Below, piece by piece: positions 1 through 32,000 of a stretch of 32,000 nt of DNA. Each line of letters starts with the position of its first letter. Positions within the stretch are counted from its first letter, which is position 1. Origin of the DNA: Candidatus Saccharimonadota bacterium (lineage in GTDB: Bacteria > Patescibacteriota > Gracilibacteria > BD1-5 > UBA2023); NCBI GenBank assembly GCA_046350815.1, contig JAXLZO010000001.1, positions 240,001-272,000 on the forward strand. The letters are read 5' to 3'. Below the pieces are notes generated by a model that saw only the letters and a program-made list of their open reading frames with translations, ran no database searches and was not told where the DNA came from. The position numbers and the translations under genes are program-made.

Positions 1-102
1 AAGATGCGATTGCTCTCCGAGAGTCATAATAGACCCAGATCCAAATTGTTTTTCAATCTGTGCAAGGGCTGCTTTGAGAGCTTCTTTTTTGTTATCAGTC
101 AT
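1..102 (-). CDS. recA: Recombinase RecA, first 34 codons (gene continues past the left edge)
   Basis: Reverse translation from ATG (100-102) gives [34 protein letters not shown]. This matches the conserved RecA N-terminus (E. coli ...[26 protein letters not shown]...). Confidence 0.9.
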
Positions 103-179
103 ACGAGAAAATATTTTGTTTAAAAGCGAATCTACTATAGAGAGATGATGGAGAAACTCAAATTTTTTATAAATAGCAA

Positions 180-960
180 GGCTCTAGACCAGAAGATTTT
201 AGAAATATCTAAGATCTTCTGGATTTTTTATAAAATATTTTAATCATTGTAATAAGTTCCTGCTCAAGTTCAAAGCTTTCTTTGGTATACATCCATTCAC
301 ATTCTTTGAGATGAAGGTGAAAGTTTACTTTCACACCGTTGAACTTGTTCAATCGGCGCTTTGTGAAACTCCAGAAGTTCTCAATCCCGTTGATGTGAAT
401 TCCATTCCCAAGTGAGAATTCACTTGTACCATGGTTGACTCGGAAGTGCTTGTCGATTCATACATCTACGAGATCATCGTATCCCTTCCAGCCATCTGAA
501 TACAGGATAGAATCTTCTATGCTGACTTTTCCCTGTATTATAGGTCGGAGTGTTACAGCTTTGTAATTCGGAATAATCTCTGTATATATTTCTACTCTTC
601 CATTCTCATCTTTTCTCTTGATGAGTCAAAACACTGGCTGTTTGAGGGTTCATCTTCATCGTTTGAGTTTTCCTGTAAGTCCTCTTTTTCTCTTTGCTCC
701 AAAATAGCTTTCATCTACTTCAATTGCACCACCTATCTTTTCTTTGAAAGCTTCAATTCGATGAGTATAGATCACCTTCCTAAAGATAGAGAAATAATGG
801 TTAACGGTCTTTCGATTATATCCCAAAAGCTCGCTTGTTTTTGTGGCATCAATATCCACACAAAAGCACTTAATAATCTTTTTAAGTTCGTGAACTGATA
901 TTTTGCTGTATGGGATCATAAGAAGAGAGTATATGAGTTACTTTCTTCTGGTCTAGAGCC
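180..960 (-). mobile_element. IS1595-family insertion sequence, type A
   Basis: Terminal inverted repeats GGCTCTAGACCAGAAG (180-195) and CTTCTGGTCTAGAGCC (945-960); identity extends to 178-196 / 944-962. It encloses a single ISXO2-like transposase gene. No clean target-site duplication is seen. Confidence 0.85.
209..919 (-). CDS. IS1595-family (ISXO2-like DDE) transposase, 236 aa with 4 TGA read as Gly
   Basis: I translated the frame codon by codon from 919 to the TAG at 209-211. Motifs IEVDESYFGAKRKRG, LYSDGWKGYDDL, HFRVNHG and GIHINGIENFWSFTKRRL are present. The standard-code track shows only the first 87 aa (656..919). Confidence 0.9.
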
Positions 961-1077
961 TTTATATTTAGCCTAGAAAGATTCTACTCATTTCTCAACA
1001 CATTTTATAAACATGTGATTGTCAAAAGTATATAGCAATAATTTTTGCTCTTCGAGACCTACAAACCCGACATGAAA

Positions 1078-1299
1078 CTAACTTCCTTTCCTCTTCCTCT
1101 TATAAAACTCTTCCAGCGATGCTCTTGTCCCAATCGTGATATCAACTGATTCACATTTGGGACATTTTTTTACTTCTTCATTATACGGAGTGGTATGGAG
1201 ACATTCCCGACAATAGATAATCACTTCTCAGCGATCTTCTGCGAATGTTTGGCGTTGTTTGCCGAATGTTGCAACGTTAATGAGTTCTGAGTATTTCAT
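1078..1299 (-). CDS. Small zinc-ribbon protein (73 aa, hypothetical)
   Basis: ATG 1297-1299 to TAG 1078-1080 with one in-frame TGA. Sequence is MKYSELINVATFGKQRQTFAEDRGEVIIYCRECLHTTPYNEEVKKCPKCESVD..., with a CxxC...CxxC pair. It lies directly downstream of smpB on the same strand. Confidence 0.45.
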
Positions 1300-1309
1300 A
1301 GAGTGTCAT

Positions 1310-1813
1310 TTAGTAATGTTTCATAGCTACTTCTGCTTCTCTATTGAGTGTGCGCTCTTTAAGAAGTTGTTTTTTATTATAATCCTTTCGTCCTCGCACA
1401 AGTGCAACTTCCACCTTGAGAAGATTTCCTTTCAAATATATTTCTCTTGGGATCAAGGTGACTCAACCAGTCTTTATTTTCTCTGCAAATTTCAGAACAT
1501 CCTTTGATTTGAGAAGAAGGGTACGATCTCTGGTTGGATTTTGACCAAGTGTAATACCTCACTGTCTATAGGGAGTAATATGCCACCCGATGACTACAGG
1601 CAGGCCATTCTTGAGGCTGATATACGCACCTTTGAGATTGGTAGATTTTTCTCGCAGAGATTTCACTTCCCATCCATGAAGAATTACTCCCGCCTCAAGA
1701 GTCTCAATCGTTTCATAGTCAAAATTCGCCTTTTTATTGACGTGTATGCTCGTGCGTTGTTTCTGATGAATCATAATATGGAGTATAGCGATAGTGCGAG
1801 GTGAATCAACCAT
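1310..1813 (-). CDS. smpB: SsrA-binding protein SmpB (167 aa; alternative start ATG at 1774)
   Basis: Fragment 1559..1813 joins through TGA to the downstream frame, which ends at TAA 1310-1312. Motifs NKKANFDYETIETLEAGVILHGWEVKSLR, NPTRDRTLLL and VRGRKDYNKK are present. Confidence 0.9.
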
Positions 1814-1844
1814 CTTTCGTCTTGGAGATCACTTTTTTGCTAAA

Positions 1845-4800
1845 TTAAGGTCTCTTCGAGAGAATCCAACCAAGCATCGATTCAGGGTTACCGATATATC
1901 GAGCTTCTATTCGAAGTTTTTCAAGAGAGAGTAGTATGATATTTCCTTGAGGATCAAGTTCAAGAAATTTTCGTATTTGCTCGGTACTTGTCCCCTTGGG
2001 AAATTCAAAAAAATAATGATTTCCGATTCGGGAGAGTTTTATTACCCCATAATCCTTGAGGATAATTTTTGATTTGAGAAGTTTGAAAAAGTTCGATAGT
2101 CCACCCATTTCACCTTCGTAGAGCATTTCACTTTCCAGCTCCTCTATTTCCTCAATACTACCAAGCGACTCTGCAAGACGATAAAAGTGGATTTTTTCTC
2201 ATTCCGATGAGAAAATGGACTCATCTGGAAGTATAGAGAGCTCGAGTTCTATTTTGGTCTGTTGGTTGAATATCTTTGTTCCGGTCTGTAGCTCAACGAT
2301 TTTTTCTTCAAGCATCTTGATGAATACGGGAATTCAGGTCTCTCGAGTATGGCCGGACTGCTTAATTCAGAGAACCTCTCAGGCTCCACGAATCTCAAGA
2401 TCTCTCAAGGCAAGCTCGAATCCAGCACCAAGATAGGAATGCTCTTGAAGCGTGATAAGTCGTTTTTTTGCATCATTTGCAAGATCCGTCTTTGTATAAG
2501 TGAGAAGACAATATGCTTCACGGTCACGCCGGCCAACTCTTCATCGGAGTTGATGAAGCGATGAGAGTCAAAAATCCTGCGCATCCCGTATGATGATCGT
2601 ATTTGCATTCGTGAAATTGACACCATTTTCAATAACGGTTGTGGAGAGGAGAACATCACTTTTTCCTTCGCGAAAGGAAAAAATATGGTTCTCGAGTTCC
2701 TCTCGATCCATACTTCCATGCACAGTAGTAATACGAAGCGGATCTCACGATGATTTTTTGATTCATACACAGATATCTTGGATCTCTTTGCTCACCATTG
2801 CAAGGGTTGCAATACGATTATGAAGAACAATGACTTGTCCATTTCTCTCGATTTCCCGTTCGATCAGAGTATGAATATGTTTATGATCCCATGGATGAAT
2901 CTCTGTCATAATCGGCTTACGCTCTCTCGGTGGAGTTGTAAGAAGCGATATTTTTTTGACTCACGAGAGTGCCATGTTGAGTGATCGCGGAATAGGCGTT
3001 GCCGAGAGTGAAAGAATATCAATATTTGTTTTGAGTTGATTGATTTTTTCTTTGTCCATCACGCCAAACTTATGCTCTTCATCAATGATAAGCAGACCAA
3101 GGTCTCTATATTCAACCGATTCGGAGAGAATTCGATGAGTTCATACCACCACATGAATATCACCTGATTTCAATCATGCTATCACTCGCTTTGCAGCCTG
3201 ATCCGTCACCATCCGAGTCAAAAGTCCGACCTTGATTCAAAATGGCGAGAGACGTTCTTCTAACGAAATCGCATGCTCATGTGCAAGTACGACCAGAGGT
3301 GAAATAAGTGCTGTTTGTTTTCCAGCAAGAAAAGATCGATAGATAGCATTCATAGCCACTTCCGTCTTTCCAAATCACACATCTCATGAAAGGAGTCGAT
3401 CCATAGGTTCGTCTTTCGCCATATCTGAGAGAACATCGTTGATCGCCTGACGTTGATCGTTTGTATAGGCATATTTAAATGCTTCACGAAAATTTGCTTC
3501 TTGATGTTCGAATTCTGGAAACGCAAATCATTGTATTTTTTTGCGTTCTGAATAGAGAGCGAGAAGCTCACGAGCTATTTTCTCCACATCTTCACTTGTT
3601 CTCTCCATTGTTCGTTGCCAATCACCCGACCCGAGGTTATTGAGTGTTGGATTTTCTTCTCAGACATACTTTGAAATCCTATATACCTCGGTCGCTGGAA
3701 CATAGAGCATATTTCCCTCCCGATATCTAATGCGAATATATTCTCTCGTGAGATTTCCGAGTGTTTTTTCCTCTATTCATTCATAAACACCGATTCCGTG
3801 ATCGATATGAACCACATAATCACCATCTTCAATCTGAAGAAGAAGGTCAATATTTGCATGCTTTTCTCTATCTCATCGTCGTTTAATAATCAACGGAGAG
3901 AGGATGTCATCTGAGAGGATCGTAATAGTAGTAGGACTCGAAGGTATTTGAAAAAGTTGTGCGTATATTTTAGCCATACTTCATCATACTCGATGAGATT
4001 CAACGCGTGCCATGGGGGGTAATTCGATACCTTTAACAATTGGCAAACCAATATCGGTCAATCTTTTTTCAATCTTTGCAGGATATTTAGAAAGAATCAC
4101 AACATTCTCGTTCTCTAAAGTATTTTTGAGACTGAGAATACTCTCAATATGCAACGATGAAATATCGGCAGTCGATGAAGTTGTACGCCCTATATGAAGA
4201 GATTCATTCCAATCCTTTGTGTATTTCAGAGTTGTCGAAAAATCCCTATGATGAGAGATGCATTGAATATTGTTCTTATCGAGAGCTTTCTTAAGATCAG
4301 AGTATCCTCTTTCAATCTCCGATTCTTTTGGTTTGATAGCAGACATATTCTTTGTCTCAGCAATATCTCACAATGGAATCTTTGGAAGAAGAATACTCTT
4401 TTTTACATACGAAACATTATTTTTCATCAAAACTATCGACTCAATCAATGAATCAAACCAAGAAATAGAGAGTACGTCAAAATCCATTCATCGAAGACTG
4501 AGTTGTATGGTATCTCCAAGTTTCCTATAACTCCTTTCACGAGAGAGGGTATCATCATAGAACCAACCATGTTCAACAAGTTCTCAAGAAACATGAAGAA
4601 TATCAATCTCTTGATCACAAGAGAGACAAAGAGCATCTCGCTCCAACGGATGAAGCCATGACCCGACCGGAATATTCTTTTCTTCAAGAAGAACGTGATA
4701 TCAAAACACACTCGCCGTGAATGCATGATGGTGATTATTCACCTTTATTATTCACCCAGAAAGAAGACTTCCCAGTCGAAAAAGAGTGAGAGTATCGCTC

Positions 4801-4946
4801 TCATTTTCTGTCAAAATAACGCTTGATCGTTCATCGCAATAAGCATGAACGATCGTAGTAAGTGCGTGCGGACTCGTAATGTACATGAAACCCCTTGAAA
4901 GATGGAAAATTATATGGAAAATACTCTGAGTGAAAAATTTTTCCAA
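1845..4946 (-). CDS. mfd: Transcription-repair coupling factor Mfd (about 1033 aa; start is TTG 4946 or ATG 4886)
   Basis: I checked every in-frame triplet from 4964 down to 1845 and found no TAA or TAG, only TGA. Motifs are [G]DV[G]FGKTEVA (Walker A), [24 protein letters not shown]...[15 protein letters not shown][G]LSSLHQLR[G]RVGRR and RGA[G]EVL[G]IKQSGH, where [G] marks TGA. Confidence 0.93.
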
Positions 4947-5025
4947 GAAGAGAAAATTGATTTTTTACAAAATACCATATAAAGAATTGCGAAAGAAACA
5001 ATATAGTGTTGTTTCTCATGATCAA

Positions 5026-5031
5026 AGGAGG
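5026..5031 (+). promoter_or_regulatory. Shine-Dalgarno site AGGAGG, 7 nt upstream of ATG 5039
   Basis: The sequence is atcaaAGGAGGagaaaatATG. No comparable SD was seen upstream of the other start codons I inspected in this window. Confidence 0.6.
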
Positions 5032-5038
5032 AGAAAAT

Positions 5039-5641
5039 ATGGAATCTCCGATATGTTTTGAATTGTCCTATGATAAGGTGTTATGGGGTAACGATTCACG
5101 CATTGAGGATATCCAAAAATGTTTGGTTGTTATCAGTATTTCTTACGCGAATATTAATCACCAAATAAATACGACGAATAATAAAGCGTTCGTATTTCAT
5201 TTACATGGAATCACTCATAGCATGACAGCGGCGAGAGTTCACACCATACCGCAAATTGGTATGAAGGATGGTGGTAGCATACAGATATGTTTGCGACATC
5301 AAAAACAAGTGGCAACCGTCTTGGTGGCTGATGATATTGATATCTCCATTTTACAGACAGCGATGTTCTACTATATGGAGTATTATACGCAAAAATACCA
5401 GCTTCTCCAGAATGAGAAGAGCACACTCCAGGAGGAAAGAGCTCGACTCCAAAAACAAGTAGCCAAAATAAAAGAAAAGGTAAGTCTTCTGCAAGAAAGA
5501 GACATGCTCGAAGATGATCATCTTATGGAGGAGGTCCTGGACCAACTCTATACCGCAGAGGAACGACACGAAAAAAATGGACAAGATTATTTTAAAACAA
5601 TCCAGTCTATTGGTCGACTCTTCCGTTTTCAGGAGGCATAA
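5039..5641 (+). CDS. Hypothetical protein with C-terminal coiled coil (200 aa)
   Basis: The frame is intact even in the standard code (track ORF 5006..5641). I chose ATG 5039 because of the SD. The C-terminal segment QLLQNEKSTLQEERARLQKQVAKIKEKVSLLQERD is heptad-like. A terminator hairpin follows. Confidence 0.6.
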   Translation: MESPICFELSYDKVLWGNDSRIEDIQKCLVVISISYANINHQINTTNNKAFVFHLHGITHSMTAARVHTIPQIGMKDGGSIQICLRHQKQVATVLVADDIDISILQTAMFYYMEYYTQKYQLLQNEKSTLQEERARLQKQVAKIKEKVSLLQERDMLEDDHLMEEVLDQLYTAEERHEKNGQDYFKTIQSIGRLFRFQEA

Positions 5642-5668
5642 CAAAAGAGTCTGCTAATTTCTATCTTT

Positions 5669-5702
5669 AAATACTAGGGTTATGCCCTAGTATTTCTTTT
5701 TG
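5669..5702 (+). terminator. Rho-independent terminator
   Basis: Stem AAATACTAGGG (5669-5679) pairs with CCCTAGTATTT (5685-5695) around a 5-nt loop. A T-rich tract TTTCTTTTTG follows. Confidence 0.7.
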
Positions 5703-5726
5703 TCAAAATCAAAAAATCAATATACT

Positions 5727-5987
5727 ATGAAAAGTATTCTTATTCATACTTGTATGTCATTTCATTCTCATGATGAGTGTTCTCTTGCTCAAACAGAGAT
5801 ACACTCAAGTGTTATTGTTTGATCAAAAGGGCAAATTGTCATCCCAAAAGATGTTCGAGATAAGCTCTCTATCAAACCGGGTGATACTCTTACAGTAATC
5901 ACCAAAGGTGGCATCGCTATCGGTCTTATTAAAAATAGCGATCTTCCAGCACTTCTATCTTATCTTCAAAATGAAATCCATGATTAA
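5727..5987 (+). CDS. AbrB/MazE/SpoVT-family DNA-binding protein (86 aa)
   Basis: The sequence ...SSVIV[G]SKGQIVIPKDVRDKLSIKPGDTLTVITKGG... matches the swapped-hairpin signature G-x-KGQ-[IV]-x-IPK-x-[IV]R. It has one TGA and overlaps the next gene by 17 nt. Confidence 0.7.
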
Positions 5988-7920
5988 TTCTTCTCAAAAA
6001 CAACTTATCCTCTTGTGGATTTTTGTATCAGTCTTTCTCACTTCCTGTGGAAACACCGATTCAGCACAAACAAAAGAAAAAACGCCAATAGAAGTATCGG
6101 TTATGAAGCCAATGACTGGATGAGTATCTCTTGATCAAACGATCGTTGGTCGTGTTATTGGTGATCCGGAAGTGACTATTTCATCACAAAGTGCTGGCAT
6201 ACTTTCATCGGTATCATATCGTATTGGTGAGAATGTAACACTCGGATCTTCACTCGCGACCATTGATACATCAAGTACTACCAACAATTTGAATCTCAAT
6301 AATGCTCAAACAGCACTCAATAACGCCAGTAGTATTGCAGAAAGTACGATTGCTAGTCTTGAATCTGATTTGAGTGCAGCTCATATTCAGTATGAAAATG
6401 CCAAGCAAAGTCAAAAGAGTGTCTACAATACGACCCAAACACAACTCGATCTCTGAGTGTTAACCGCACAAAATAATACTGCTCAAGCAAAGACAAATCT
6501 TGAACAAGCAGAGCTTGCGCTCTCAAATTTTCAAAAAACAAAGCAAGAGTCTCTCTCTAGTCTCAACGATCGTGCATCCACCCTCTCAAAAACCATTGAT
6601 GCAAGTCTCATTCAAGTTGTGTCAACTCTTGAACCAGCACTTGAATCAGCTGATAAAATTCTCGGAGTAACTGATAAAAATAAAGATCTGAATGATTCCT
6701 ATGAGCCCTATCTTGGCAGTAAACTCACACGCTCAAAGGAACAAGCAAATGATGCATTTTTAACAGCCAATCAACTCCTCGATTCATACCGACGCACCTT
6801 TGCGAGTGATCCAGAATATCGCCTATCAGCTGCGCGAGAAGCAAACAGTGCAGCAGTAGAACTCTATCGACTTCTCACTCTAGTTGTTCAGAACTCCGTT
6901 ATCGATGTGAATCGTTTTTCTCAGACCCAATCGGATAGTATACTTTCACAAGTCAGTGTTCGTCAACAAGCTCTCATACCACTCGAATCCACATTGACAA
7001 GTCTACAAAATAGCCAAAAGGATCTTGAAACTCAACGATCAACAACACGAGCAAATCTTGAAACTCAAGAACTGTCTCTCAAGAAAGCACTTGAAATCGC
7101 ACAAAAACAAAATGGTCTTATAGCTGGTTCGGACACAGTCGCAACAGCTGAGCTTTCTGAAAAAAATCTCGAAAATACAAAAGCACAAATCAATCAAGCA
7201 CGTGAAAGTGCTGATAACGCACTCAAGCTTGCAGATGCGAACCTCAAAAGCCTTGAAGCAAAAATTGCTGCCCAACGAACACAAGCTCAAGCAAATGTTG
7301 ATAATGCCAAATGACAAAGAGACATTGCGAACGTAAGTGTAAAAAATGGAAACTTTCTCTCTCCGGTAAATGGTGTTGTGACGGCACGTCTTGTTGAACC
7401 GGGAATGTCTGTATCGCCTGGTACACCCCTCTTTACTCTTGCTACCAATTCAACAAAAATTGTGCGGAGTGATCTTCCACTCAATATTGCTGAAGCTCTG
7501 AAAGTTGGTGATGAAGTTTCGCTTGTAAGTCTCTCATCAAGTATAAGTTTCTCAGGTCGTATTAATCGTATCGCCAGTGCACCAGATGCAAATACAAAAC
7601 TCTATCGTATTGATATTGCTCTACCGAATGATACAGATCTCCACTATGGAGAATTTGTACAAGTTCATGCTCAAATCATACATGGTCTATCAGATACACA
7701 AAGTGGATCGATTAGTCTTCCTATGAAGGTGATCATGGCAAAAAGCCAATGAAGGTACGAAGTCTGGGTAATAGAAGATAGTCGACTGGCAAAGCGCGAA
7801 GTTACTCTTGGAGCAATATCGAGTAATCAGGCTGAGGTACTCAGTGGTATTACCTCTGATACCATGGTCGTAACAAGTGATGGAATATACGGTGAAGGTG
7901 ATAGTGTTATTATTCGATAA
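5971..7920 (+). CDS. Efflux transporter periplasmic adaptor (membrane-fusion protein, HlyD/AcrA family), lipoprotein, 649 aa
   Basis: Track fragments 5908.., 6172.., 6457.. and 7378.. are all in one frame and are joined by TGA. The lipobox signal is LILLWIFVSVFLTSC. A lipoyl/beta-barrel segment reads SPVNGVVTARLVEPGMSVSPGTPLFTLA. A very long helical insert lies between the lipoyl halves. The stop is TAA 7918-7920. Confidence 0.85.
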
Positions 7921-12112: not shown

Positions 12113-12135
12113 TTCTCATACGTTATTTTTACAAT

Positions 12136-12537: not shown

Positions 12538-12546
12538 TTTATCTTT

Positions 12547-13299: not shown

Positions 13300-13316
13300 T
13301 ATCTTTAATATATTGT

Positions 13317-14762: not shown

Positions 14763-14765
14763 TAG

Positions 14766-15903: not shown

Positions 15904-15961
15904 TGCTGATGTATCAGGGGAGAAATCTCTTTTTATCGATTATCCTTATCTCAGTGAAGAT

Positions 15962-17936: not shown

Positions 17937-17966
17937 ATATATTTGTATTTATTTGATAGATTGAGG

Positions 17967-21362: not shown

Positions 21363-21386
21363 TGATATTAAACCCATCTATATTTC

Positions 21387-21701
21387 ATGAATTACTTTCT
21401 CATTCTTGTTATTACAGCCCTATTACTCACAGCTTGCATCTCACATCAATCAGTCTTAACTAAGAATATCCCACCCACAGTCATCTATCAAGATGAAGAA
21501 AAGTATGCCGATCTCGATAACCTCACGCAAGCAGGACTTCTCCATACACTGGGTGAAGTTATCATCAAAGATCCCATTATAGGTGGACATGTCCCTCAAA
21601 CGATTGATGGAGACGTCCTTCCAACTATTGCTCATCGAACTGAACTTCGATCTCTCGACTATCGAGACTACAAGCCATGAGTACGGTCAGATATTGTCTA
21701 G
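21387..21701 (+). CDS. Lipoprotein gene, 5' fragment truncated by an IS insertion
   Basis: The signal peptide with lipobox is MNYFLILVITALLLTAC. The frame passes TGA 21678 and ends at a TAG created at the IS junction (GTC TA|G). Confidence 0.7.
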
Positions 21702-22417
21702 GGTCTAGACTAGCAAATTTTTAAAAATAGCTTTTTTTGCGAGTCTGAAATTTTTATAATTGTATCGAAATTCGCACCCTTTCAAACGAAGATGAAATTT
21801 ATCTGGGGCAATCCCATTAAACTTTGCCATTCTTCTTTTGCAGAAACTCCAGAAAGATTCAATACCATTCACATGATTCTTTCCTCTGGCAAACTCATTC
21901 TCACTGTGAAATACCCTATAGTGATCATATCCATTTAAAACAAGAGAATCATATGCTTTCCATCCATCCGTATAGATGGTAGATCATTCCAGTATTTTCC
22001 CATGAATAATTGGCATAAGTTCACTTCTGGAGCAGTTCTCTACAATACTTACAAATACTCTTCCATCTCGCTTGAGAAGTCCAAACACTGGTGTTTTTCC
22101 TGCAGCTCACCTTCCTCTTTTTCATCTAACCCGACGAGCACCAAAGTAACTTTCATCCAGTTCAAATTCTCATCAGAATTCATACCTTTCTTTGAAACTC
22201 TTTGATTCCTCAATGGAAATTCGCACAATAGCCTCTCGAAATCGGTTATACCAAAGATTCACACTATTACGATTTATCCCCATAATTTTTGCTGTCTGAG
22301 TAGCAGTAAAATCCTCAAAAAAATAGTAAAAAATTCTTCAAATTTTATAAGTCGATAATTTTGTGTATTTGATCATAAGCAAATAGTGTAAGAAGTACTA
22401 TTTGCTAGTCAAGACCC
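21701..22417 (-). mobile_element. IS1595-family insertion sequence, type C (717 bp)
   Basis: Inverted repeats are GGGTCTAGACTAGCAAAT (21701-21718) and ATTTGCTAGTCAAGACCC (22400-22417), matching at 17 of 18 positions. The 7-bp direct repeat TTGTCTA flanks it (21694-21700 and 22418-22424). Confidence 0.9.
21705..22376 (-). CDS. IS1595-family transposase, 223 aa
   Basis: Sequence MIKYTKLSTYKI[G]RIF...EF[G][G]EFELDESYFGARRVR[G]KRGR[G]AAGKTPVFGLLKRDGRVF...YTDGWKAYDSL...HYRVFHS...HVNGIESFWSFCKRRM. The stop TAG lies inside the left IR. Confidence 0.9.
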
Positions 22418-23034
22418 TTGTCTATCCAGCATTTCTCAAGCTCTCCATCACCGAACAAGCACAATTCTTGGAATCATATACAAAAAATAATCCTCAAGAA
22501 CTCGTGGTCCAGTTTGCAAGTACAGGAACAATTGATATGAAAGCTTTTCAAGAATCTTTCAGACAGCTCCCAAAGGCATCTGTTATTCGGCTGGAGTTTT
22601 ATAGTATTCCCGCAAACTATTATGAGCTCTTTGATGCCATGGATGAAAGACTCACCCAAGACTCAGAAATAGAAATCCGGATTTGGCTCCCTGACATCCC
22701 ATTTGGCTTCTCGGTGGATGCATTCTTCCTTCATGTCAAGAAATGGATCAATCGCCATCCAAATCATCTCGTTATTAAAGATTTCTCTTTCTCGATACTT
22801 AATGCTCCAGTGATACAATTTGTCCTCGAGAATCCAGCATCAGTACTCGGAGATTTCCCAGCCAAGAGAGTCTCTGCCGATCCGGTCGTCATCGATACAC
22901 GATGAGAGCCACCTGGTGATGGTCCAAAATGAAAAGCAGTCATTGAGCAGTTTTTCAAAAATAGCAAAGTCGAGAATATGCTTTTTGATTTTGGGAAGAA
23001 AGATGGAGAGAAAATTGAGGTATACGGATATTAA
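22418..23034 (+). pseudogene. Lipoprotein gene, 3' fragment (continuation of 21387..21700)
   Basis: Removing the IS and one TSD copy joins ...RSDIV to YPAFLKLSITEQ... in frame. The fragment continues through 2 TGA to TAA 23032-23034. Track ORF 22402..22905 (TTG start inside the IS end) is this fragment. Confidence 0.75.
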
Positions 23035-23091: not shown

Positions 23092-24306
23092 TTAATAACT
23101 AAGATTATCTAGTATTGTACTATTAGGTGCGGTGCGATAATGAGATTCAACATATGTTCAATCAGACTTAACATAGCTATTTACTGGAACTAAATTAGAA
23201 TTTGTTGTGGGAAGATCTACTAATGTGGGAGATATGGATAGTGCTTCTACTGAAAGTGGCTTATCAATACTTATGGATTGAGTTAGTGGTTTTCTATCAG
23301 AGAAATTAATGATACTAGTGGGTTTACAGGAGATAGACTTACGATCCCACTGATATCATTCATTACATCCACAATAATCATCATGGATATACCCATTTAT
23401 TAGATCGCAGTTTGATGCTGACGCTTTAGATGGATCATTAATAAATGCTAGTTCTGAAATCCATCATTCAGTGTCATTTTGTTTAATTTGATACCATGTC
23501 ATACTTCAGACAATCATTTTATTCAAAATATACACATACTCTCATCGAATAATGGGCTTAATAATATCTCAGTTTACTCCTGGGGTTTTTCGAAAATTTA
23601 TATCTTGCAGGATCTCTTTATATTCCAATTCTTTTAAGTTGGTATTAATAGGCGTGAGGTATGTACTCCAGTAAGTCACGCTTATTTCATTTTCACATAG
23701 TGTTCAATTTTTATCTGATTTGAGTAACAATATCTCATTTCAACTCTGTTGATTTCAATAGAGTTGATGTTCTTTTGCAAATTCTTGAGGAATACTTTGA
23801 AGTAAATTTACACTCATTACATAATTTGACAGCATATTAGATTGAAAGTCCTCAGAATGCTTGACTCATTGCATATTGTGAAAAAATTTCAATAAATATG
23901 CATCTGACTCTTTTATCAGTGATATAGTATGTTTGTATCATTCCGATGAAGCAGTGAGCTCAGTTAATAATGCCTCTTGTCATAATATACTTCTCTCGGC
24001 TAATAATTTAGGTGCAATAGTTTTCTGGAAAGGTATACCACTATTATGCTCTGTAGTTAAATTATAGTGATTTTGGTCTGGTGCGATAGAATAGAGTGCT
24101 ACTATTTTATGTATATTGCAGTAAGCTTTCCAAATACTCTCTATTGTTTTTTCGTTTGAAAGTTCTGTATTTCTTGTTTTTAGATATAAGGCTTGCCTAT
24201 TGGAAGAATCCTTTTTTGGAGTTTCTTGTGTACTACATCACGATATTGTAAGAGTTACTAGAGCAAGTGAAATAACATATGCCAATCTGGTTATTGCTTT
24301 AAACAT
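23092..24306 (-). CDS. Hypothetical lipoprotein, 404 aa, 13 in-frame TGA
   Basis: I checked every in-frame triplet from 24321 to 23092 and found no TAA or TAG before TAA 23092-23094. The signal peptide is MFKAITRLAYVISLALVTLTIS[G]C, a lipobox whose Gly is TGA-encoded. The gene is invisible in the standard-code track, which has no ORF of 60 aa or more here. Confidence 0.75.
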
Positions 24307-24385: not shown

Positions 24386-25684
24386 TTAGATCTTCTCTCT
24401 CCCACCCATAAACGGTCGAAGCACCTCTGGAACCCTCACACTTGCATCCTCATTCTGATAATTCTCCATAATAGCAACCATTGCACGACCGCAGGCAAAT
24501 GCTGTCGCATCATTCGTGTGGATGAGTTCTACTTCACCACTCGATCGGCGAACTCGTGTCTGAAGGCGACGAGATTGGTAGTCACTCATATAATCTGCTG
24601 TATGAGTCTCTCGGTATTTGCCTTGACCTGGAAGCCATGCTTCAATATCAGATCACTTTGCATTGGGCTTACCAATATCAAAAGTACACTTTTGGAGCTT
24701 CTGATACGGAAGACCAAGCTGTTGCATAAGATACTCTTGGATCGCTGAGAAGAGAAGATGCTCGTCATGTGCTGTCTCAACTGTCGAGAATGATTCCATC
24801 TCCATCTTATCGAACTGATGCATACGGATAATTCCTTCCATATCTTTACCGTACGTACCGGCCTCACCACGAAAACTGGTAGCATACCCGAGGTATCTCA
24901 CCGGCATATCAGCCTCAGCAAATATCTCACCAGCATGCATAGCTCAGAGAACATGTTCTGCACTTCCTTGGAGCCAGAGATCCTGTCACTCAATCTTATA
25001 TCGATCTTCGATTGGCTCGAGACGATCCATAGCATCGTATGGCTCGGTCTTGATCATAAGTGGTGGGAGCACTGGGGTAAATGGTTTTGCTGAGACATTG
25101 AGCCCATGTTCCTTGATAATCGATGCGAGGACTTCTTCATTCCCAAGTGTCGCCATTACCCATTGAACCAGTGCCATCTGGAGAAGGACGAGATTACCTT
25201 TGAGGTAAGCAAATCTTGAACCCGCAACATTTGCAGCACGCTCCTTGTCGATCCATCATCGGATCTCTGCAATCTGAGCATGATTGCGAACAGGGAAGCC
25301 AAATTCTGGAATAGTTCCCCATTGCTTCACGACAACATTCTCATCTTCCGTGAGACCCACTGGAGTATCGGGAGTTGGGATATTTGGGATTTTCTTAAAG
25401 AGGGCAAAAAACTGGCTCTCTACATCACCAAAATCCTTCTCAGCATTCTGAATCGATTCTTTGAGAGATTTTGCTTCATCGAGAAGTGCAGGATCTGGTT
25501 TTCCTTTACCCATCAGAGATGAGAGCTCATTGCGACGAGCACGCATGGCATCGAGTTCTTGTTGAAGACTTACACGTTTCTTATCGAGATCCATAACCAA
25601 ATCAAGATCTACTTTGACGACCTTGTCATGAAGTGCTTTTCGAACTATTTCAGGGTTGGTTCGAAGAATTTTAATATCAATCAT
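24386..25684 (-). CDS. serS: Seryl-tRNA synthetase, 432 aa
   Basis: Four track fragments share one frame and are joined by 5 TGA. The N-terminal coiled coil begins MIDIKILRTNPEIV. Class II motifs are YLGYATSFRGEAGTYGKDMEGIIRMHQFDKMEM and ...ATAFACGRAMVAIMENYQ. Confidence 0.93.
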
Positions 25685-25707: not shown

Positions 25708-27183
25708 CTATTCGTTATCCGAAGTTGAAGATGATTTTTTGGTTTTTGTGCCTTTTTTATCTCATCGATAGATACTACCGGTTTCGCGATATTGCTTCTT
25801 CTTATGTTCCATTTTAGCCAGTCGTTCCTTTTCTTTGAAGATACTGACTCGACCCTTGAGCTCGAGGTTAATCGGAGTACCTTGGAATCAAAATGCTTCA
25901 CGGATACGATTTTCAATATAGCGTGGATAGGAGAAGTGAAAATGTGAAGCATTGTTCACGGAAATCACGAATTTTGGAGGATTCACCTCAACCTGTGATC
26001 AATAAAATACTTTTGGTTTGTGCGACTTACGATTTCCCGTCGGTGGATGATCAAGAATAATCTGTTGCAAGAAGTTATTGAATTCCCCAGTTGTCACTCG
26101 CTTATGACGCTCATTGTAGATGGAGAGTGCCTGATCAAGTATATTATTAATGCGCTTTCCATCAGTTGCCACTGTGAAAACTGGACTAACATACGCAATA
26201 AATGCAAGTTCCCGTTGAAGATACTTCAGATAATGTTCCATGATTTTATCTTTGTCCGTATCAGGACGAGCTAGAACTTTATCCCACTTATTGATAACCA
26301 AGATAACTCACTTTTTCTCTTCGAGTGCTTTGGAGAGGACAACTTGATCTTGGTGAGTCACTCCTTCATCCGCATCAACCACGAGAGCTATCACATCAGC
26401 ACGTCCGATAGCACGTTCACTGCGAAGTACACTCCAATCCTCAATATCAGCGTGCTCAATTTTACCAGAGCGACGAATACCCGCTGTATCGATAAGAATA
26501 TATTCATGACCGTTGTACTCAAAATGAGTATCGATACTATCTCGCGTCGTCCCTGGCATATCGCGCACCATCGCTCTGTTTTGCCCGGTAATTGCATTGA
26601 TAAGTGAGGATTTTCCAACATTTGGGCGACCTATGAGGGCGAGCTTGATGGGAGTTTCTTCTGATTCCTCTTTCTTCTCGAGACCATGTGACTTGAGAAA
26701 AGCTGATATTTCACCCCAGAGTTGACCGAAGCCACGACGATGTGACACAGATACTGCAATGGGCATACCGAGACCGAGAGACATGAGCTCAAGAGCTTGT
26801 GTATCACGTAACTCATTATCTGCCTTGTTAGCAACCAAGATGATTGGTTTCTTCATGCGACGAAGTACTTTTGCAATCTCAAGATCTTCATTGGATATAT
26901 GCGAATATTCCACAACAAAGATAATAGCATCCGAGCGTTCGATCGAAGCCTCAGCACGCTCACGAATATCACGAAGTATCTCATCACGAGAACCTGAAAC
27001 AAGTCACCCACTGTCACAGAGGGTAAAGTGACCGCCTGTTTCACGGTCAACCATGCTAAATTCGAGAATATCACGGGTTGTGTTCTCCTGATCATGCACA
27101 ATGGCAATTTTATGTCCAATAAGGGCATTGAAGAGGGATGATTTCCCAACATTCGGACGCCCAACGATAGTGATACGAGCCAT
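25708..27183 (-). CDS. der: Ribosome-biogenesis GTPase Der (EngA), 491 aa
   Basis: Two tandem G domains are present ([16 protein letters not shown] and [16 protein letters not shown]; DS G[G] and DTAG; NKAD and NKWD), followed by a KH-like C-terminus. I translated the frame codon by codon down to TAG 25708-25710. The track's upstream start at 27198 is TTG, and I prefer ATG 27183. Confidence 0.92.
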
Positions 27184-27314: not shown

Positions 27315-27872
27315 ATGTCAAAACGAGCTCTTATAATCATTGATTGCATTAATGAAATGCTTCACCCTGATGGCAAACTCTCTCAAAAAGGATACAGAAA
27401 TTTTCTAGAACAACACCAAAGCATAACCCATATCAACAAAGTTATAGCAGATGCAAGAGCAAATAATTCCCTCGTCGTATTTATATCACTCGGATTTCAC
27501 GAGAACTACGCAGATTGTCCACTTTCGTCACCTCTCTTCCAAAATGCTCCAAAATTTGGGATTCTCAAGCGATGAACTTGGTCAACAAATATATATGAAG
27601 AGGTCAATCATAAAGACAATGATATTTCAATTCATAAAAATCGTGTCAGTGCATTTCATCATACAGAATTGGATAATATTTTAAAGGAGCATGGTGTGAC
27701 ACATATTCTGCTTGCTGGTTGTGCAACTGATCTTGCAATAAATTCAACTGCTCGTGATGCGCATGATAGAGATTATAGTGTCACGATACTATCATCGTGC
27801 TGTATTGCAGCAAATAATGAAGATCATGATAATAGTCTCCGACTATTAGGAAAAATTACAGAAATTTTATAA
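27315..27872 (+). CDS. Isochorismatase-family cysteine hydrolase, 185 aa
   Basis: Fragments 27315.. and 27669.. share a frame through one TGA. Motifs are RALIIIDCINEM, NRVSAFHHTELDNILKEHGVTHILLAGCATDLAINSTARDAHDRDYSVTIL. Confidence 0.8.
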
Positions 27873-27883: not shown

Positions 27884-28333
27884 ATGCAATTATCACAATT
27901 TCTCGTGGAAGCAAAAACTTCTACCTATGCGGCTGGGGATAGTGCGAAACGGACCAAAGAAACGGACCAATCAACTACAATGATATTTGAGAAAGGAGAC
28001 TGGAAATACCACGATAATTACTTTGGTGGGGAACCTTACGGTGGTCGTGAAGTGGTGCTCTTCCAATGAAAACCAATCTGGATGATGACATACTATGGCT
28101 GGGTCGAAAAAAGCAGAGATATAATTGCATGAGAAGTCTATAGAATCCTCCAATGAGCACTCAGAAATATACCTGAGCGTGCACCATATCGTGGACCTCT
28201 AGAGTACAAAGATGAAGAATATATTTATCAAGGGTCTAAACCAGTTGACAGGATAAATTATCCCATAAACTTGGCTCTATGATCAGTAAAACTACCTATA
28301 GGAAAAAATCACGAATTTGAGATGCAAAAATAA
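27884..28333 (+). CDS. DUF5680-like protein gene truncated by an IS (native part 27884..28231; read-through tail is IS sequence)
   Basis: Sequence MQLSQFLVEAKTSTYAAGD...YHDNYFGGEPYGGREVVLFQ[G]KPIWMMTYYGWV...EEYIYQ, then the IS left end is translated as GSKPVDRINYP... to TAA 28331-28333. The family assignment is from memory of DUF5680 sequences and needs an HMM check. Confidence 0.6.
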
Positions 28334-28984
28334 GAGAAATTGTGAAATATTTTTCTCTGGATTTTACTTCAGATAAAACAGCGGTATTAACAGGTCTCAA
28401 TCCAAAAACAACACAGGATTGGTATAGATATATCAGAAAGGCGATAGCCTTTCTCTGTGAGAGAGAAAAGAATGAAATATGGACTGGAAATGTTGAGATA
28501 GATGAGAGTTACTTCTGACCAACAAGAGTCCGATGAAAGAGAGGAAGGTGAGCTGGTATGAAGACAATAGTCTTTGGTTTACTCAAAAGAAACTGAAAAG
28601 TATATACTGAGATAGTTCCTGATGTAAAAGCAAGGACTCTCGTGCCAATCATTCGATGAAAACTTCGTATAGAAGAGTCTGAGATTAACAGTGATGGATG
28701 GTGAGCTTATGATGGGCTTGTAGATATTGGATATGAGAAACACTACCGTGTTCATCACGGAGCAAATGAATTTGCAAGATGAACTCAACACATTAATTGA
28801 ATAGAGTCATTTTGGAGTTATACCAAAAGAAGACTCTCTCAATTCAATGGAATCAAGAAAGTCTACTTCTACTATTTTTTGAAAGAATCTGAATTCAGAT
28901 ATAATTGTCGTATTCAATGAAAAGATATTTATAAGGAAGTGCTAAAGTTACTTCGTCAATATAACCCGTAACTGGTTTAGACCC
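28232..28984 (+). mobile_element. IS1595-family insertion sequence, type B, copy 2 (753 bp)
   Basis: It has the same sequence as 12547-13299 (offset 15685). The 7-bp direct repeat TTATCAA flanks it (28225-28231 and 28985-28991). Confidence 0.92.
28279..28971 (+). CDS. IS1595-family transposase, 230 aa (identical to 12594..13286)
   Basis: Identical nucleotide sequence to copy 1. The identical antisense track ORFs 12894..13106 and 28579..28791 confirm the duplication. Confidence 0.92.
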
Positions 28985-29236: not shown

Positions 29237-29246
29237 TAAAATACAT

Positions 29247-29963
29247 ATGAATCTACAAAAAACTATTTTTTCATTTGTGTATCTATTATGTAGCATAGTG
29301 CTCACATCTTGTACACCGTGAACTCACACACCATCCTCTTCTTCATCACAAATATTAGCCTGATCATCCTCTCTACTATATACCTATATTCCCATTCATT
29401 GTGAAGCATCCAAAATTCCTGAGACACTCAAAGTGATTGAACAAATTTCGTCTGGATCAATCATAGAGATCAATATTCAAGATGATTGCAAGAATGGCTA
29501 TTTTATACTTGAAGTGCCTCTGTCGATTCGTGAGGCGCTTGCCAAAGGAAGTTATAAAATGGTTATTCTCGGTGATGATTCCAGTGAAGGTCCACGTACA
29601 TCTTTCACTGCAGATGAATGGCAATGGCTCAAAAATCTCAATACACAGCTGATCATCAGTAGAGAAGTGGAAATGACTTTCCCTGGAACATCTCGGACAG
29701 CAGATCAACGTGATTTATTTGAGATACTACCTATATTGAGTGCAGGAACTCCTAAAAAATATACGAATCTAATTGAGTACTCGGATTATTTTCCTGGCTC
29801 ACTCACTCGAGAGAACATCCAAAAATGTGACTCTCTTGTGCTCGGATCCATATCATACTCATGAGCACAAACATTGTATAAATCACCAAAAGAAGATAAC
29901 TATCCAGCGGAAATGAAATGATTTAGAGACCGAGCTTCTTGTTATGCACAAGTCATCCGATAA
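29247..29963 (+). CDS. Hypothetical lipoprotein, 238 aa
   Basis: ATG 29247. The signal peptide with lipobox is MNLQKTIFSFVYLLCSIVLTSC. The frame is continuous with track ORF 29433..29864 through 2 upstream and 2 downstream TGA. The stop is TAA 29961-29963. Confidence 0.7.
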
Positions 29964-30019: not shown

Positions 30020-30033
30020 TTTTATTGAATCGA

Positions 30034-30573
30034 TTACTCGTCCATTCCCACAACCACTTTTGCATGTCGTACGACATGCTCACCCATCATAAACCCTGAC
30101 TCAAAGTCAGCAATGATTTTGCCTTGTGGTCCAGGACCTTGACTCATAACATCATGTCGAGCTGGATCCACATCTTGACCAACACTGTCGAATTTATTCA
30201 CTCCAACAGAAGTTAAACCTTTTTCGAAAATATCCTTAGCACTCTTGATACCAGCAAGAAGCGTCTCCGCAGAAGTAGACTCATTCGACTGATCAGCAAT
30301 GCGTGCTATATTGTCATAGGCAGGAAGTATTTTTCCAACAATATTCGCAGTGAAAAATGTTTTCATCTCTTCTCGCTCACGAGCATGACGCTTGACGAGA
30401 TTGTCATAGTCAGCTTTGAGCCGCTGAATGATGACAATTTGATCATCATCTGATGAAGAAGTCTGAGACGAAGATTCATCTTCTTGACTCACAGCTTCTT
30501 CAGAAATATTCTCTGTGACAATATTCTCATCATCGAGTTTTTCTTCATTGTGAGTTTGATTCTCTTGTGTCAT
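30034..30573 (-). CDS. grpE: Nucleotide exchange factor GrpE, 179 aa
   Basis: An intact ORF. It has an acidic N-terminus, then LKADYDNLVKRHAREREE..., ILPAYDNIARI, and FDSVGQDVDPARHDVMSQ...GKIIADFESGFMMGEHVVRHAKVVV. Confidence 0.9.
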   Translation of the reverse strand: MTQENQTHNEEKLDDENIVTENISEEAVSQEDESSSQTSSSDDDQIVIIQRLKADYDNLVKRHAREREEMKTFFTANIVGKILPAYDNIARIADQSNESTSAETLLAGIKSAKDIFEKGLTSVGVNKFDSVGQDVDPARHDVMSQGPGPQGKIIADFESGFMMGEHVVRHAKVVVGMDE

Positions 30574-30608
30574 AAATTTGTATTAAAAGTTAAAAGAAAT
30601 ATTAAGGA

Positions 30609-31109
30609 CTAACGTTTAAGTTTATTCTTGACTTCTGCTGCTTTTGATTCAATGCGATACCGAGTATCCTCAAATATATCACGAATGCTTGATTCGAGAA
30701 TCTGGTATGCATGATTTCCATCTCGTTTCAATTTCTCAATAATCACATCTGCTTCCGACTTAATCGTGTTAATATGCTCTTCGCGACGTGAGTAAACATC
30801 TTCAATTTTTGATCGAATATCATCGAGATTTGGGGCTCCAATTTCTTTAAGACGGGCGATTTCCTGAGAAAAATCCTCCTCCATATACGCAATTTCTTCT
30901 TTGAGACGATTGCGTATGCTGGTGAGCTGAGTGCGAACTTCATCACTTAATTCAAGCTCATTGATACGATTCCAGATATCTTTATGAAGATTGACAAACT
31001 CATCACGAAATTCAGAAAAACTCGATGGGAACTTGTCATTTTTTGTAACTATTGCAGCCGCTACACCAGCAATATAGCCAAAGCCAAGCCAAAGAAGTGA
31101 TTTTTTCAT
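30609..31109 (-). CDS. Membrane-anchored helical protein (YtxH-like), 166 aa
   Basis: An intact ORF. The N-terminal anchor is MKKSLLWLGFGYIAGVAAAIV, followed by charged helical repeats. It is located between groEL and grpE. Confidence 0.5.
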   Translation of the reverse strand: MKKSLLWLGFGYIAGVAAAIVTKNDKFPSSFSEFRDEFVNLHKDIWNRINELELSDEVRTQLTSIRNRLKEEIAYMEEDFSQEIARLKEIGAPNLDDIRSKIEDVYSRREEHINTIKSEADVIIEKLKRDGNHAYQILESSIRDIFEDTRYRIESKAAEVKNKLKR

Positions 31110-31120
31110 ATGGAAGAATT

Positions 31121-31157
31121 AAAAGAGAAGAGAGTATAGAACATATACTCTCTTTTT
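31121..31157 (-). terminator. Hairpin terminator or attenuator downstream of groEL
   Basis: An 11-bp stem AAGAGAGTATA (31128-31138) pairs with TATACTCTCTT (31144-31154) around the loop GAACA. T-rich sequence follows on both strands. Confidence 0.55.
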
Positions 31158-31164
31158 GCAAATA

Positions 31165-32000
31165 TTAATACATACCGCCCATACCTCCTCACATACCGCC
31201 ACCATGATTATGTTCTGGAGCTTCTGGCTTTGGAACATCAACAATGACTGATTCCGTCGTGAGGAACATACCAGCTACTGAAATAGCATTTAGAAGTGCA
31301 AGACGCTCAACTTTGGTAGGGTCAATGATTCCTGCTTCGAGCATATCAACATAGGTATCAGTTGCTGCGTCATAACCATATGCAGCGTCAGTATTCTTAG
31401 CGACATTATCAACAATAACCGCACCTTCCTTACCAGCATTTTCAGCAATTTTTCGAAGTGGATAAGAGAGGGCTCGGGCAACGATATTGAGTCCGACTTG
31501 CTGATCGCTTGTCAATCCTGATACGTTTTCAAGCGATTTTGCTGCCTTGAGGAGCGCTACTCATCCTCCAGCTACGATACCTTCATCAACTGCTGCTTTT
31601 GTAGCATTCAGTGCATCTTCGATACGGAGTTTTTTTTCTTTCATCTCGACTTCCGTCGCAGCCCCTACACGGATCACTGCGATACCACCAGAGAGTTTTG
31701 CTACACGCTCAGCAAGCTTTTCTTTATCATAATCAGAGTTACTTGCACGGATTTGTGCCTCGATCTCAGCTACACGTCCATCGATCATGTATTTCTCACC
31801 CTGTCCGCCAATGACAACAGTAGAATCCTTCTTTGCAACGATAGCTTTTGCACGACCAAAATGATCAACAGTGACGTGTTCAAGTTTAAATCCAAGCTCT
31901 TCTGTAATAAGAGTTGCACCAGTGAGGATTGCAATATCCTTGAGCATCTCTTTCTTACGATCACCAAATCCTGGAGCCTTGATAGCGAGGACATTCAGTG
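31165..32000 (-). CDS. groL: Chaperonin GroEL, C-terminal part (gene continues past the right edge)
   Basis: ...[10 protein letters not shown][G][31 protein letters not shown]...[26 protein letters not shown]...HNHGGGM[G]GGMGGMY. The true stop is TAA 31165-31167, 24 nt beyond the standard-code stop. Confidence 0.95.

Follow-up and report, generated by a model that had tools for sequence, protein, structure and literature searches.

Gene content of the window

The window, that is, the whole stretch of 32,000 nt analysed here, was read as a unit, and 28 curated genes define the counts given below. RecA, named by an earlier sequence-only reading of this DNA, is indeed present at its left end, but only the first 34 codons lie inside the window (1–102, minus strand, identified by reading the sequence), as the gene continues past the left end. 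It is followed on the minus strand by a diverged copy of an IS1595-family transposase (copy a, 209–919, 4 in-frame TGA), by SmpB (1310–1813, 2 TGA) and by Mfd, the transcription-repair coupling factor (1845–4886, 1,013 aa, 25 TGA). The plus strand then carries a coiled-coil protein (5018–5641, 0 TGA), an HlyD-like membrane-fusion protein (5971–7920, 4 TGA) and an AcrB-family RND transporter (7940–11293, 1,117 aa, 11 TGA).

A type II Zorya set was identified farther along the same strand. It comprises ZorB (11408–12112, 7 TGA), which is MotB/OmpA-like with a peptidoglycan-binding domain, ZorA (13317–14762, 7 TGA), which is MotA-like with a coiled-coil tail, and the HNH endonuclease ZorE (14766–15503, 5 TGA). 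These proteins strongly matched the PADLOC type II profiles ZorB2 (1.4e-69), ZorA2 (4.1e-58) and ZorE2 (3.8e-42), and ZorB matched the solved ZorB structure 8vvi (7e-35). Whereas the usual gene order of type II Zorya is zorA-zorB-zorE, the order in the window is zorB, an unassigned 140-codon ORF, an IS element, zorA and zorE. The set also differs in that its three genes are all TGA-rich (32–50% of Gly codons).

The IS element lying in this locus, copy 1 of an IS1595-family element (753 bp, 12547–13299, plus strand), has terminal inverted repeats of 15 bp that match perfectly, GGGTCTAAACCAGTT, and is flanked by a 7-bp duplication of its target, TATCTTT. Its transposase CDS (12594–13286) contains 10 TGA, which amount to half of its Gly codons. 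Copy 2 (28232–28984, plus strand) is 100% identical in sequence, has the target duplication TTATCAA and splits a DUF5680 gene (27884–28333, plus strand, 4 TGA), whose 151-aa ORF was restored by in silico removal of the element.

Between the Zorya locus and copy 2, we found pyruvate kinase (15623–17050, plus, 4 TGA), two thymidylate-kinase-like proteins (17061–17936, minus, 1 TGA, and 17967–18725, minus, 0 TGA), an ABC-2 permease (18882–19658, minus, 8 TGA) and an ABC ATPase (19662–20564, minus, 7 TGA) whose final sense codon is TGA, followed by TAA. Next come a hypothetical protein identical to GenBank MFO0763492.1 (U0518_01290; 20673–21362, plus, 0 TGA), a further diverged IS1595-family transposase (copy c, 21705–22376, minus, 6 TGA), an uncharacterised protein (22537–23034, plus, 2 TGA) and a putative lipoprotein with a GC content of 32% (23092–24306, minus, 13 TGA vs 4 GGN). 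Seryl-tRNA synthetase (SerS; 24386–25684, minus, 4 TGA), the GTPase Der/EngA (25708–27183, minus, 5 TGA) and an isochorismatase-family protein (27315–27872, plus, 1 TGA) complete this part. The right end holds a second putative lipoprotein (29247–29963, plus, 4 TGA), GrpE, identical to GenBank MFO0763503.1 (30034–30573, minus, 0 TGA), another coiled-coil protein (30609–31109, minus, 0 TGA) and the C-terminal 277 aa of GroEL (31165–31998, minus, 2 TGA).

TGA as a sense codon and the amino acid it encodes

If TGA is taken as a stop, the window's longest stop-to-stop frame is 414 codons, vs 1,140 when only TAA and TAG are stops; dropping TAA or TAG instead brought no gain in frame length. The sequence-only reading had described the standard-code ORF track as fragmented, with fragments fused by read-through of TGA into full-length frames, and this was borne out. 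The maximum of about a dozen fragments per gene that it gave was however too low, since Mfd, with its 25 in-frame TGAs, falls into 26 pieces when TGA is a stop. The same effect is seen in one public collection, where GroEL, called with table 11, is split as 414 + 108 aa.

Re-calling the genes with table 25, a check which that reading had proposed, gave a coding density of 89% for the 28 curated genes, and single Pfam matches run through whole profiles across TGAs (2–328/328 in pyruvate kinase, to 1020/1021 in AcrB, 2–143/143 in SmpB). Among 9,523 sense codons, 146 are in-frame TGA (1.5% of codons, 24% of Gly codons), distributed over 23/28 genes and evenly along gene length, while no in-frame TAA or TAG occurs inside the 28 genes. 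Five short genes carry no TGA at all, a minor correction to the claim, otherwise sound, that the whole window uses TGA as Gly. As had been stated, all frames close with TAA (21 genes) or TAG (7 genes), none with TGA, and the C-termini obtained in this way match the ends of Pfam profiles. Counting TGA as Gly raises the Gly content of the window genes from 4.7% to 6.3%.

The amino acid was assigned by a Codetta-style test on Mfd, in which 21 well-aligned TGA columns out of the 25 TGAs in the gene were scored against 47 reference Mfd genes whose own DNA is free of in-frame TGA. Gly obtained +20.5 nats, Ser, the next best, −40.5, and Trp and Cys −81.1; the codon-reassignment inference suggested earlier, run here on Mfd alone, thus gives Gly. 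The per-column Gly score of TGA (0.97) was at least equal to that of the GGN codons of the same gene (0.73), and 12/21 TGA columns were Gly-majority vs 5% of all columns (binomial P = 5e-11). Of the 26 Mfd columns with at least 95% Gly among the 47 references, 16 are filled by GGN in the window and 9 by TGA, and these TGA sites include the Walker A motif S[G]DV[G]FGKT, I[G]TH, F[G]L..LR[G]RVGR and RGA[G]ELL[G]. When the 643 in-frame TGAs of 32 relatives were pooled, Gly scored +638 nats. TGA is also found in relatives at the same Gly columns as in the window. Judged from these alignments, Gly is the sole decoding of TGA with positive support.

All motifs cited in the sequence-only reading were located. 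In Mfd, the TGAs of [TGA]DV[TGA]FGKTEVA are at 3384–3386 and 3375–3377, those of DF[TGA]LS..LR[TGA]RVGR at 2568–2570 and 2541–2543, and those of RGA[TGA]EVL[TGA] at 2379–2381 and 2367–2369. In GroEL, the TGA of IVAGG[TGA]VALL is at 31561–31563 and that of the GGM tail at 31189–31191. Single TGAs are found in DTK[TGA] of pyruvate kinase (15824–15826), DSG[TGA] of Der (27004–27006), L[TGA]ANGAGKST and DEPTA[TGA]VD of the ABC ATPase (20451–20453 and 20067–20069) and E[TGA]H of the OmpA-like protein ZorB (11798–11800), and the ESYF[TGA] and [TGA]KRGR[TGA]A motifs of the IS1595 transposases at 12831–12866, 28516–28551 and 22107–22124.

For eight proteins, the TGAs were also compared with the best standard-code homologue per gene, taken from a solved structure or from E. 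coli, and the residue opposite was Gly in 30/49 and Trp in 0/49. The ABC ATPase, aligned with human ABCA4 NBD1, has Gly opposite 6/6 TGAs, Walker A and D-loop included, and in GroEL both TGAs (2/2) correspond to Gly in the E. coli protein, the third of AGGGVAL and one of the GGM tail. Gly was opposite 11/16 TGAs in Mfd, 3/4 in pyruvate kinase (against E. coli PykF, DTK[G] among them), 4/8 in the RND transporter (against E. coli AcrB), 2/4 in Der (four of the five TGAs facing G, A, A, G in B. subtilis EngA), 1/4 in SerS (G, R, T, T in the Aquifex enzyme) and 1/5 in ZorB, in which E[TGA]H pairs with EGH of the solved structures 8vvi and 8qyd. About 40% of the aligned TGAs hence face a residue other than Gly in a single best reference, for instance R, T, T in SerS and E, E, E, K in ZorB; these are variable positions, which add noise. 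Between the three IS1595 paralogues of the window, GGN is opposite TGA in 19/31 non-TGA pairings, and TGA swaps with GGN between paralogues and orthologues. The claims that TGA falls on conserved Gly positions and that Trp does not fit there are both upheld.

Lineage of the DNA and competing readings

The three window proteins checked, Mfd, GrpE and one hypothetical protein, correspond to entries that GenBank lists under a MAG named 'Candidatus Gracilibacteria bacterium', whose Mfd entry shows Gly at every one of the 25 TGA positions, and the nearest Mfd loci are labelled Gracilibacteria and are TGA-recoded. The NCBI label is unreliable alone, because many genomes so labelled use table 11. The literature confines UGA=Gly to Gracilibacteria/BD1-5 and Absconditabacteria/SR1 (PMC8629427), which make up GTDB class JAEDAM01 (orders BD1-5 and Absconditabacterales). 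The taxonomic call that had been made from the code agrees with this range and with the GenBank matches.

Thus, we consider it nearly certain (probability of about 97%) that the window derives from the chromosome of a Gracilibacteria/BD1-5 bacterium which uses table 25, with UGA read as Gly and UAA and UAG as the only stops. From what is known of this clade, a dedicated tRNA-Gly whose anticodon is UCA would read UGA, and the loss of release factor 2 (prfB) would have ended the recognition of UGA as a stop. Such a tRNA would be marked by the Gly identity elements G1:C72, C2:G71, G3:C70 and U73 (PMC8629427). A scan of the window and of 36 flanking or related loci found no tRNA gene, and no release-factor gene lies within the 32-kb window. 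In usage, TGA is an A+T-rich synonym among the codons for Gly, and it takes a larger share of them where GC is lower, between window genes and also between related genomes. Since TGA is Gly, the genes of the window make sense only under table 25.

It is very improbable that the code is of the extended Absconditabacteria type, in which CGA and/or CGG encode Trp in addition to TGA = Gly. Codetta predicted CGA/CGG as Trp in Absconditabacteria and CGG as Trp in some Gracilibacteria (PMC8629427), but CGA is frequent here (141 per 10,000 codons, vs <37 in Absconditabacteria; CGG is at 21 per 10,000 codons). Moreover, CGA is found at the Mfd Arg columns 497, 634 and 809 (47/47) and 781 (45/47), and CGG at the invariant Arg columns 558 and 786. 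The top decoding was Arg for CGA and CGG alike, CGG being scored at only 5 codons. Both codons stay Arg, and this therefore indicates plain table 25.

We also regard as highly doubtful a dual use in which TGA, mainly Gly, would be a stop for some genes by context. The ABC ATPase ends with ...HL-TGA-TAA and ZorB with TGA-AAA-TAA, a stop reading leaves an intact protein at three TGAs (the last codon of the ABC ATPase, the near-end codon of ZorB and one in the C-terminal tail of Der), and rare alternative UGA readings were reported in BD1-5 proteomics (PMC4032931). However, a TGA stop is needed by none of the 28 genes, TGA is evenly distributed over gene length, and the 2 TGAs seen in the last two codons of these genes do not differ significantly from the ~0.8 expected. 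In the same published proteome, peptides unique to UGA-Gly numbered 97 and those unique to UGA-Trp 3, with zero specific to a UGA stop (PMC4032931).

Reading TGA as Trp, as in code 4, is extremely unlikely, and the column analysis already refutes it. This code occurs in Mycoplasmatales and several insect endosymbionts. TGA is plainly a sense codon here, and public databases carry close relatives with W at TGA positions; yet Trp scored −81 nats vs +20.5 for Gly, Trp was never opposite TGA in the standard-code homologues, and the Trp content would reach an implausible 2.4%. The W-bearing entries contain 3.4–5.2% Trp, vs 0.4–0.7% in rows with G at those columns, and were read as the output of automatic code-4 gene calling, which would explain such values by translation of UGA Gly as Trp.

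Finally, the standard code with artefact or recoding (pseudogenes, sequencing errors, selenocysteine, programmed read-through), which has nothing in its favour beyond the presence of in-frame TGA, has a negligible probability and is already refuted by the 146 in-frame TGAs over 23/28 genes with zero in-frame TAA or TAG, by identical sequence assembled independently from several read sets and by the relatives with TGA at the same Gly columns, selenocysteine in particular being rejected as these TGAs are in ordinary genes and Cys, at −81 nats, rules out Sec-like positions.

Uneven TGA use and comparison with known codes

The proportion of TGA among Gly codons is 0–15% in core genes, chaperones included, but 32–76% in the IS transposases, the genes of the Zorya set and one of the lipoproteins (chi-square P = 2e-8), the top share being that of the putative lipoprotein at 23092–24306. 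We raise tentatively the possibility, less probable than its contrary, that in this genome TGA does not interchange freely with the other codons for Gly. The accessory genes could come from a mobile pool locked to code 25, out of lower-GC, TGA-rich relatives. Alternatively, there could be selection against UGA in highly expressed genes, possibly because it is decoded more slowly or with more errors. The IS1595-family element has been recently active, and its transposase depends on TGA=Gly. The identical copies, with a transposase that requires 10 UGA codons to be read as Gly, show mobile elements active behind a genetic-code barrier.

The value of these data is mainly practical. Gene calls, domain searches and novelty claims on the window or the remaining contig require table 25, as table 11 shatters genes and table 4 turns every UGA glycine into a false tryptophan; later findings in the window based on 'short ORFs', 'pseudogenes' or 'long non-coding gaps' need to be reconsidered accordingly. 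In scientific terms, this is one further confirmed instance of a known code, reportedly described in 2013, with validation by proteomics following in 2014, and the genome as publicly deposited already carries a table 25 annotation.

Compared with table 25, the code of SR1/Gracilibacteria, the window shares UGA as a sense codon on Gly positions, termination only by UAA/UAG and closest homologues from Gracilibacteria that also have in-frame TGA; no difference was detected within the window. A small source contig (1.28 Mb) and a low to moderate GC (38%) are also as in table 25 organisms. With table 4 (Mycoplasmatales, Hodgkinia, Zinderia, Nasuia and others) the window has in common the passage of UGA from stop to sense in a reduced genome, with loss of RF2 expected, but the amino acid is Gly instead of Trp, and TGG is the only Trp codon (0.83% of codons). 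The extended code of Absconditabacteria (SR1) likewise has UGA = Gly, whereas in the window both CGA and CGG encode Arg as usual and CGA is common, which points to the BD1-5/Gracilibacteria side and not to Absconditabacterales.

Open reading frames with TGA read through

Under the standard code the window (GC 38%) contained only 21 stop-to-stop frames that reached 150 codons or more, with a maximum of 414. When TGA was dropped from the stop set, frames extended up to 1,140 codons and the total ORF length was about four times higher; dropping TAA or TAG instead had almost no effect. The fragmentation of standard-code ORFs described in the sequence-only reading was therefore found again, and all the motifs quoted there were located at definite coordinates.

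Before the Pfam search, long frames were translated with TGA as X to avoid presupposing any amino acid. This allowed us to identify Mfd, SmpB, an AcrB-family transporter, an HlyD-like adaptor, pyruvate kinase, two thymidylate-kinase-like proteins, an ABC-2 permease and its ATPase, SerS, Der, an isochorismatase, a DUF5680 protein, GrpE, the C-terminal half of GroEL and four IS1595-type transposases. Complete profiles were spanned by single HMM matches running straight across the TGAs. The first 34 codons of RecA are found at 1-102 (minus strand). The two thymidylate-kinase-like genes are adjacent and diverged (17061-18725, minus strand; Pfam PF02223, E = 1e-10 and 8e-18), and the first carries a long lysine-rich C-terminal extension. 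Three small ORFs in gaps of the gene set were judged by eye: one AbrB/SpoVT-like (SKGQIVIPKDVRDKLSIKPGD; 5642-5970, plus strand), one zinc-ribbon-like (CRECLH...CPKC; 920-1309, minus strand) and one lipoprotein-like (MNYFLILVITALLLTAC; 21363-21704, plus strand).

The 28 curated genes take up 89% of the window; of their 9,523 sense codons, 146 (1.5%) are in-frame TGAs, evenly distributed over ten gene-length deciles. The stop codon is TAA in 21 of these genes and TAG in the other 7. A dual role, in which TGA would encode glycine and also act as a stop in some genes, is very improbable. Two 3' ends could recall it: the ABC ATPase ends ...HL-TGA-TAA (19662-19667), with TGA as the last sense codon, and ZorB ends ...SL-TGA-AAA-TAA (12104-12112), where TGA adjoins the C-terminus. 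However, about 0.8 near-terminal TGAs are expected, so that the two observed are not a significant excess and are compatible with chance, and nothing in the window requires a stop reading of TGA. These two 3' ends are the sites to inspect for any residual termination at UGA.

Identity of the amino acid at TGA

Database homologues constitute circular evidence, as the annotation table already fixes the residue at TGA columns: the identical GenBank Mfd, annotated with table 25, has G at 25 of 25 TGAs. Since G or W follows the translation table, database relatives are unable to show the residue, and TGA-free DNA references and solved structures were therefore used. Eighty Mfd loci were taken as DNA from species-representative genomes and translated with TGA as X; the 47 without in-frame TGA in the Mfd core, including Gastranaerophilales, Bacteroidia, Syntrophomonas and Erysipelotrichaceae, served as references.

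Well-aligned columns held 21 of the 25 TGAs of the window Mfd, and 12 of these 21 columns had a Gly majority, versus 5% of all columns (P = 5e-11). At the 26 columns with at least 95% Gly, the window gene has TGA at 9 and GGN at 16. In this Codetta-type scoring, the summed log-odds at the TGA columns were +20.5 nats for Gly, -40.5 for Ser, -47.6 for Ala and -81.1 for both Trp and Cys, and the per-column score of TGA as Gly (0.97) was no lower than that of the gene's own GGN codons (0.73). TGA was the sole strong departure from the standard table when all 64 codons were scanned in the same way, the remaining mismatches being small swaps of similar residues (I/L/V, S/A/T). In 32 recoded relatives, Gly scored +638 nats over a total of 643 in-frame TGAs.

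Checks independent of this column test were made on eight proteins with solved-structure or E. coli homologues. Glycine was opposite 11 of 16 aligned TGAs in Mfd (E. coli), 3 of 4 in pyruvate kinase (E. coli PykF), 2 of 4 in Der (B. subtilis EngA; the other two being Ala), 6 of 6 in the ABC ATPase (human ABCA4 NBD1), 1 of 4 in SerS (Aquifex), 2 of 2 in GroEL (E. coli), 1 of 5 in ZorB (8vvi; EGH motif) and 4 of 8 in AcrB (E. coli; local BLAST), that is, 30 of 49 in total, and Trp was opposite none. Also, among three IS1595 paralogues of the window, GGN made up 19 of the 31 non-TGA pairings of TGA, the commonest partner being GGA, one base change away.

TGA is thus shown here to be a sense codon for glycine, TAA and TAG being the sole stops in the window. 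The observation made from the sequence alone is confirmed, and its interpretation, TGA as glycine under table 25, is supported. The Trp reading (code 4), said there not to fit these positions, is rejected by the Mfd score and by the absence of Trp opposite any of the 49 TGAs; it would also bring Trp in the 28 genes from 0.83% (TGG alone) to 2.4%. As glycine, TGA represents 24% of all Gly codons of these genes and brings their Gly content from 4.7% to 6.3%. Selenocysteine is ruled out by the Cys score at the Mfd columns, and pseudogenes or sequencing errors by the frame and column tests. A phage or plasmid origin of the window is rejected in view of the GroEL, Mfd, SerS, Der, pyruvate kinase, SmpB and RecA genes.

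Established knowledge of the clade (PMC8629427, gTranslate preprint) suggests that UGA would be decoded by a tRNA-Gly(UCA) and that RF2 would be absent. Proteomics validated UGA as glycine in a BD1-5 bacterium, with 97 unique peptides for UGA-Gly, 3 for UGA-Trp and 0 for UGA-stop (PMC4032931). tRNA scans detected no tRNA gene in the window, in the 8 kb past its right end or in the 32 related loci, and no RNA family was matched in Rfam at gathering score.

Code variant, lineage and database entries

In Absconditabacteria, CGA and CGG are reported to be additional codons for Trp, and CGG is possibly Trp in some Gracilibacteria (Shulgina and Eddy; PMC8629427). Such an extension is rejected for the window: among its Arg codons CGA ranks second in use (141 per 10,000), CGA and CGG both occur on invariant Arg columns of Mfd, and the best decoding of each is Arg. 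Both codons remain Arg, and the window therefore uses plain table 25.

Three window proteins, namely Mfd, GrpE and a hypothetical protein, have identical counterparts in GenBank (MFO0763477.1, MFO0763503.1 and, with locus tag U0518_01290, MFO0763492.1, respectively), all encoded by a 'Candidatus Gracilibacteria bacterium' MAG with a 1,283,673-bp contig. The organism is also present in SRR26348419, SRR26348420, SRR26348422 and ERZ3756520. TGA as glycine is thus a phenomenon known before, and this genome has already been deposited under table 25. The nearest Mfd loci are labelled Gracilibacteria, 'Peribacteria' or Patescibacteria, and all have in-frame TGA; several recoded relatives among the fetched loci L005-L057 are recorded as 'uncultured Candidatus Peribacteria'. 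A 2026 preprint assigns table 25 to GTDB class JAEDAM01 (orders BD1-5 and Absconditabacterales) and points out that table 11 is used by dozens of NCBI 'Gracilibacteria'. As this label covers table-11 genomes, it is the sequence test that counts.

The next-closest ENA and Logan Mfd entries (relatives' proteins P0002-P0004 and P0107) have W at TGA columns and an abnormally high Trp content (3.4-5.2%), and look like machine translations with table 4. In a public collection, GroEL is cut by table 11 into 414 and 108 aa (locus L001, 7769-9385). In homology searches against wrongly translated entries, invariant Gly columns misleadingly appear as mixtures of G and W. In practice, all other findings in the window need the table-25 reading.

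Uneven TGA use, the IS element and the Zorya genes

The TGA share of Gly codons varies strongly from one window gene to another (chi-square 86.8, 26 df, P = 2e-8). The GroEL, GrpE, pyruvate kinase, SerS, Der and Tmk-like genes have 0-15%, whereas the share reaches 32-76% in the IS and Zorya genes and in one lipoprotein gene, the latter being the extreme (23092-24306; 13 TGA vs 4 GGN). TGA is absent from five genes, compared with an expectation of 0.9. This share drops as gene GC rises (rho = -0.51, P = 0.006), and in Mfd of the 32 recoded relatives (L005-L057) it ranges from 4% (GC 0.42-0.47) to 89% (GC 0.21; Spearman rho = -0.85). TGA acts as a synonymous, A+T-rich codon for Gly whose use is driven by base composition. 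Its uneven use may reflect foreign origin from lower-GC donors, or selection against it in genes with high expression.

A 753-bp IS1595-family element is present in two 100% identical copies (12547-13299 and 28232-28984), with 15-bp perfect terminal inverted repeats (GGGTCTAAACCAGTT) and 7-bp target duplications (TATCTTT for copy 1, TTATCAA for copy 2). Copy 2 splits the DUF5680 gene (27884-28333 plus 28992 onwards), whose Pfam match ends at profile position 73 of 104; in-silico excision of this copy and one target duplication restored a 151-aa DUF5680 ORF. Of the Gly codons of the 230-aa transposase, half (10) are in-frame TGAs, and this protein is therefore producible only in a host reading UGA as glycine. 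The element is mobile, has been active recently and sits behind the genetic-code barrier.

Copy 1 and an unassigned 140-codon ORF (within 12113-12546) separate zorB from zorA. The genes for ZorB (11408-12112; PADLOC E = 1e-69), ZorA (13317-14762; E = 4e-58) and the HNH protein ZorE (14766-15503; E = 4e-42), all on the plus strand, constitute a type II Zorya anti-phage defence system (11408-15503). Searching the literature for Zorya in combination with Patescibacteria turned up a single paper, an incidental one. The usual gene order of Zorya systems is zorA, zorB, zorE, whereas here it is zorB, zorA, zorE.
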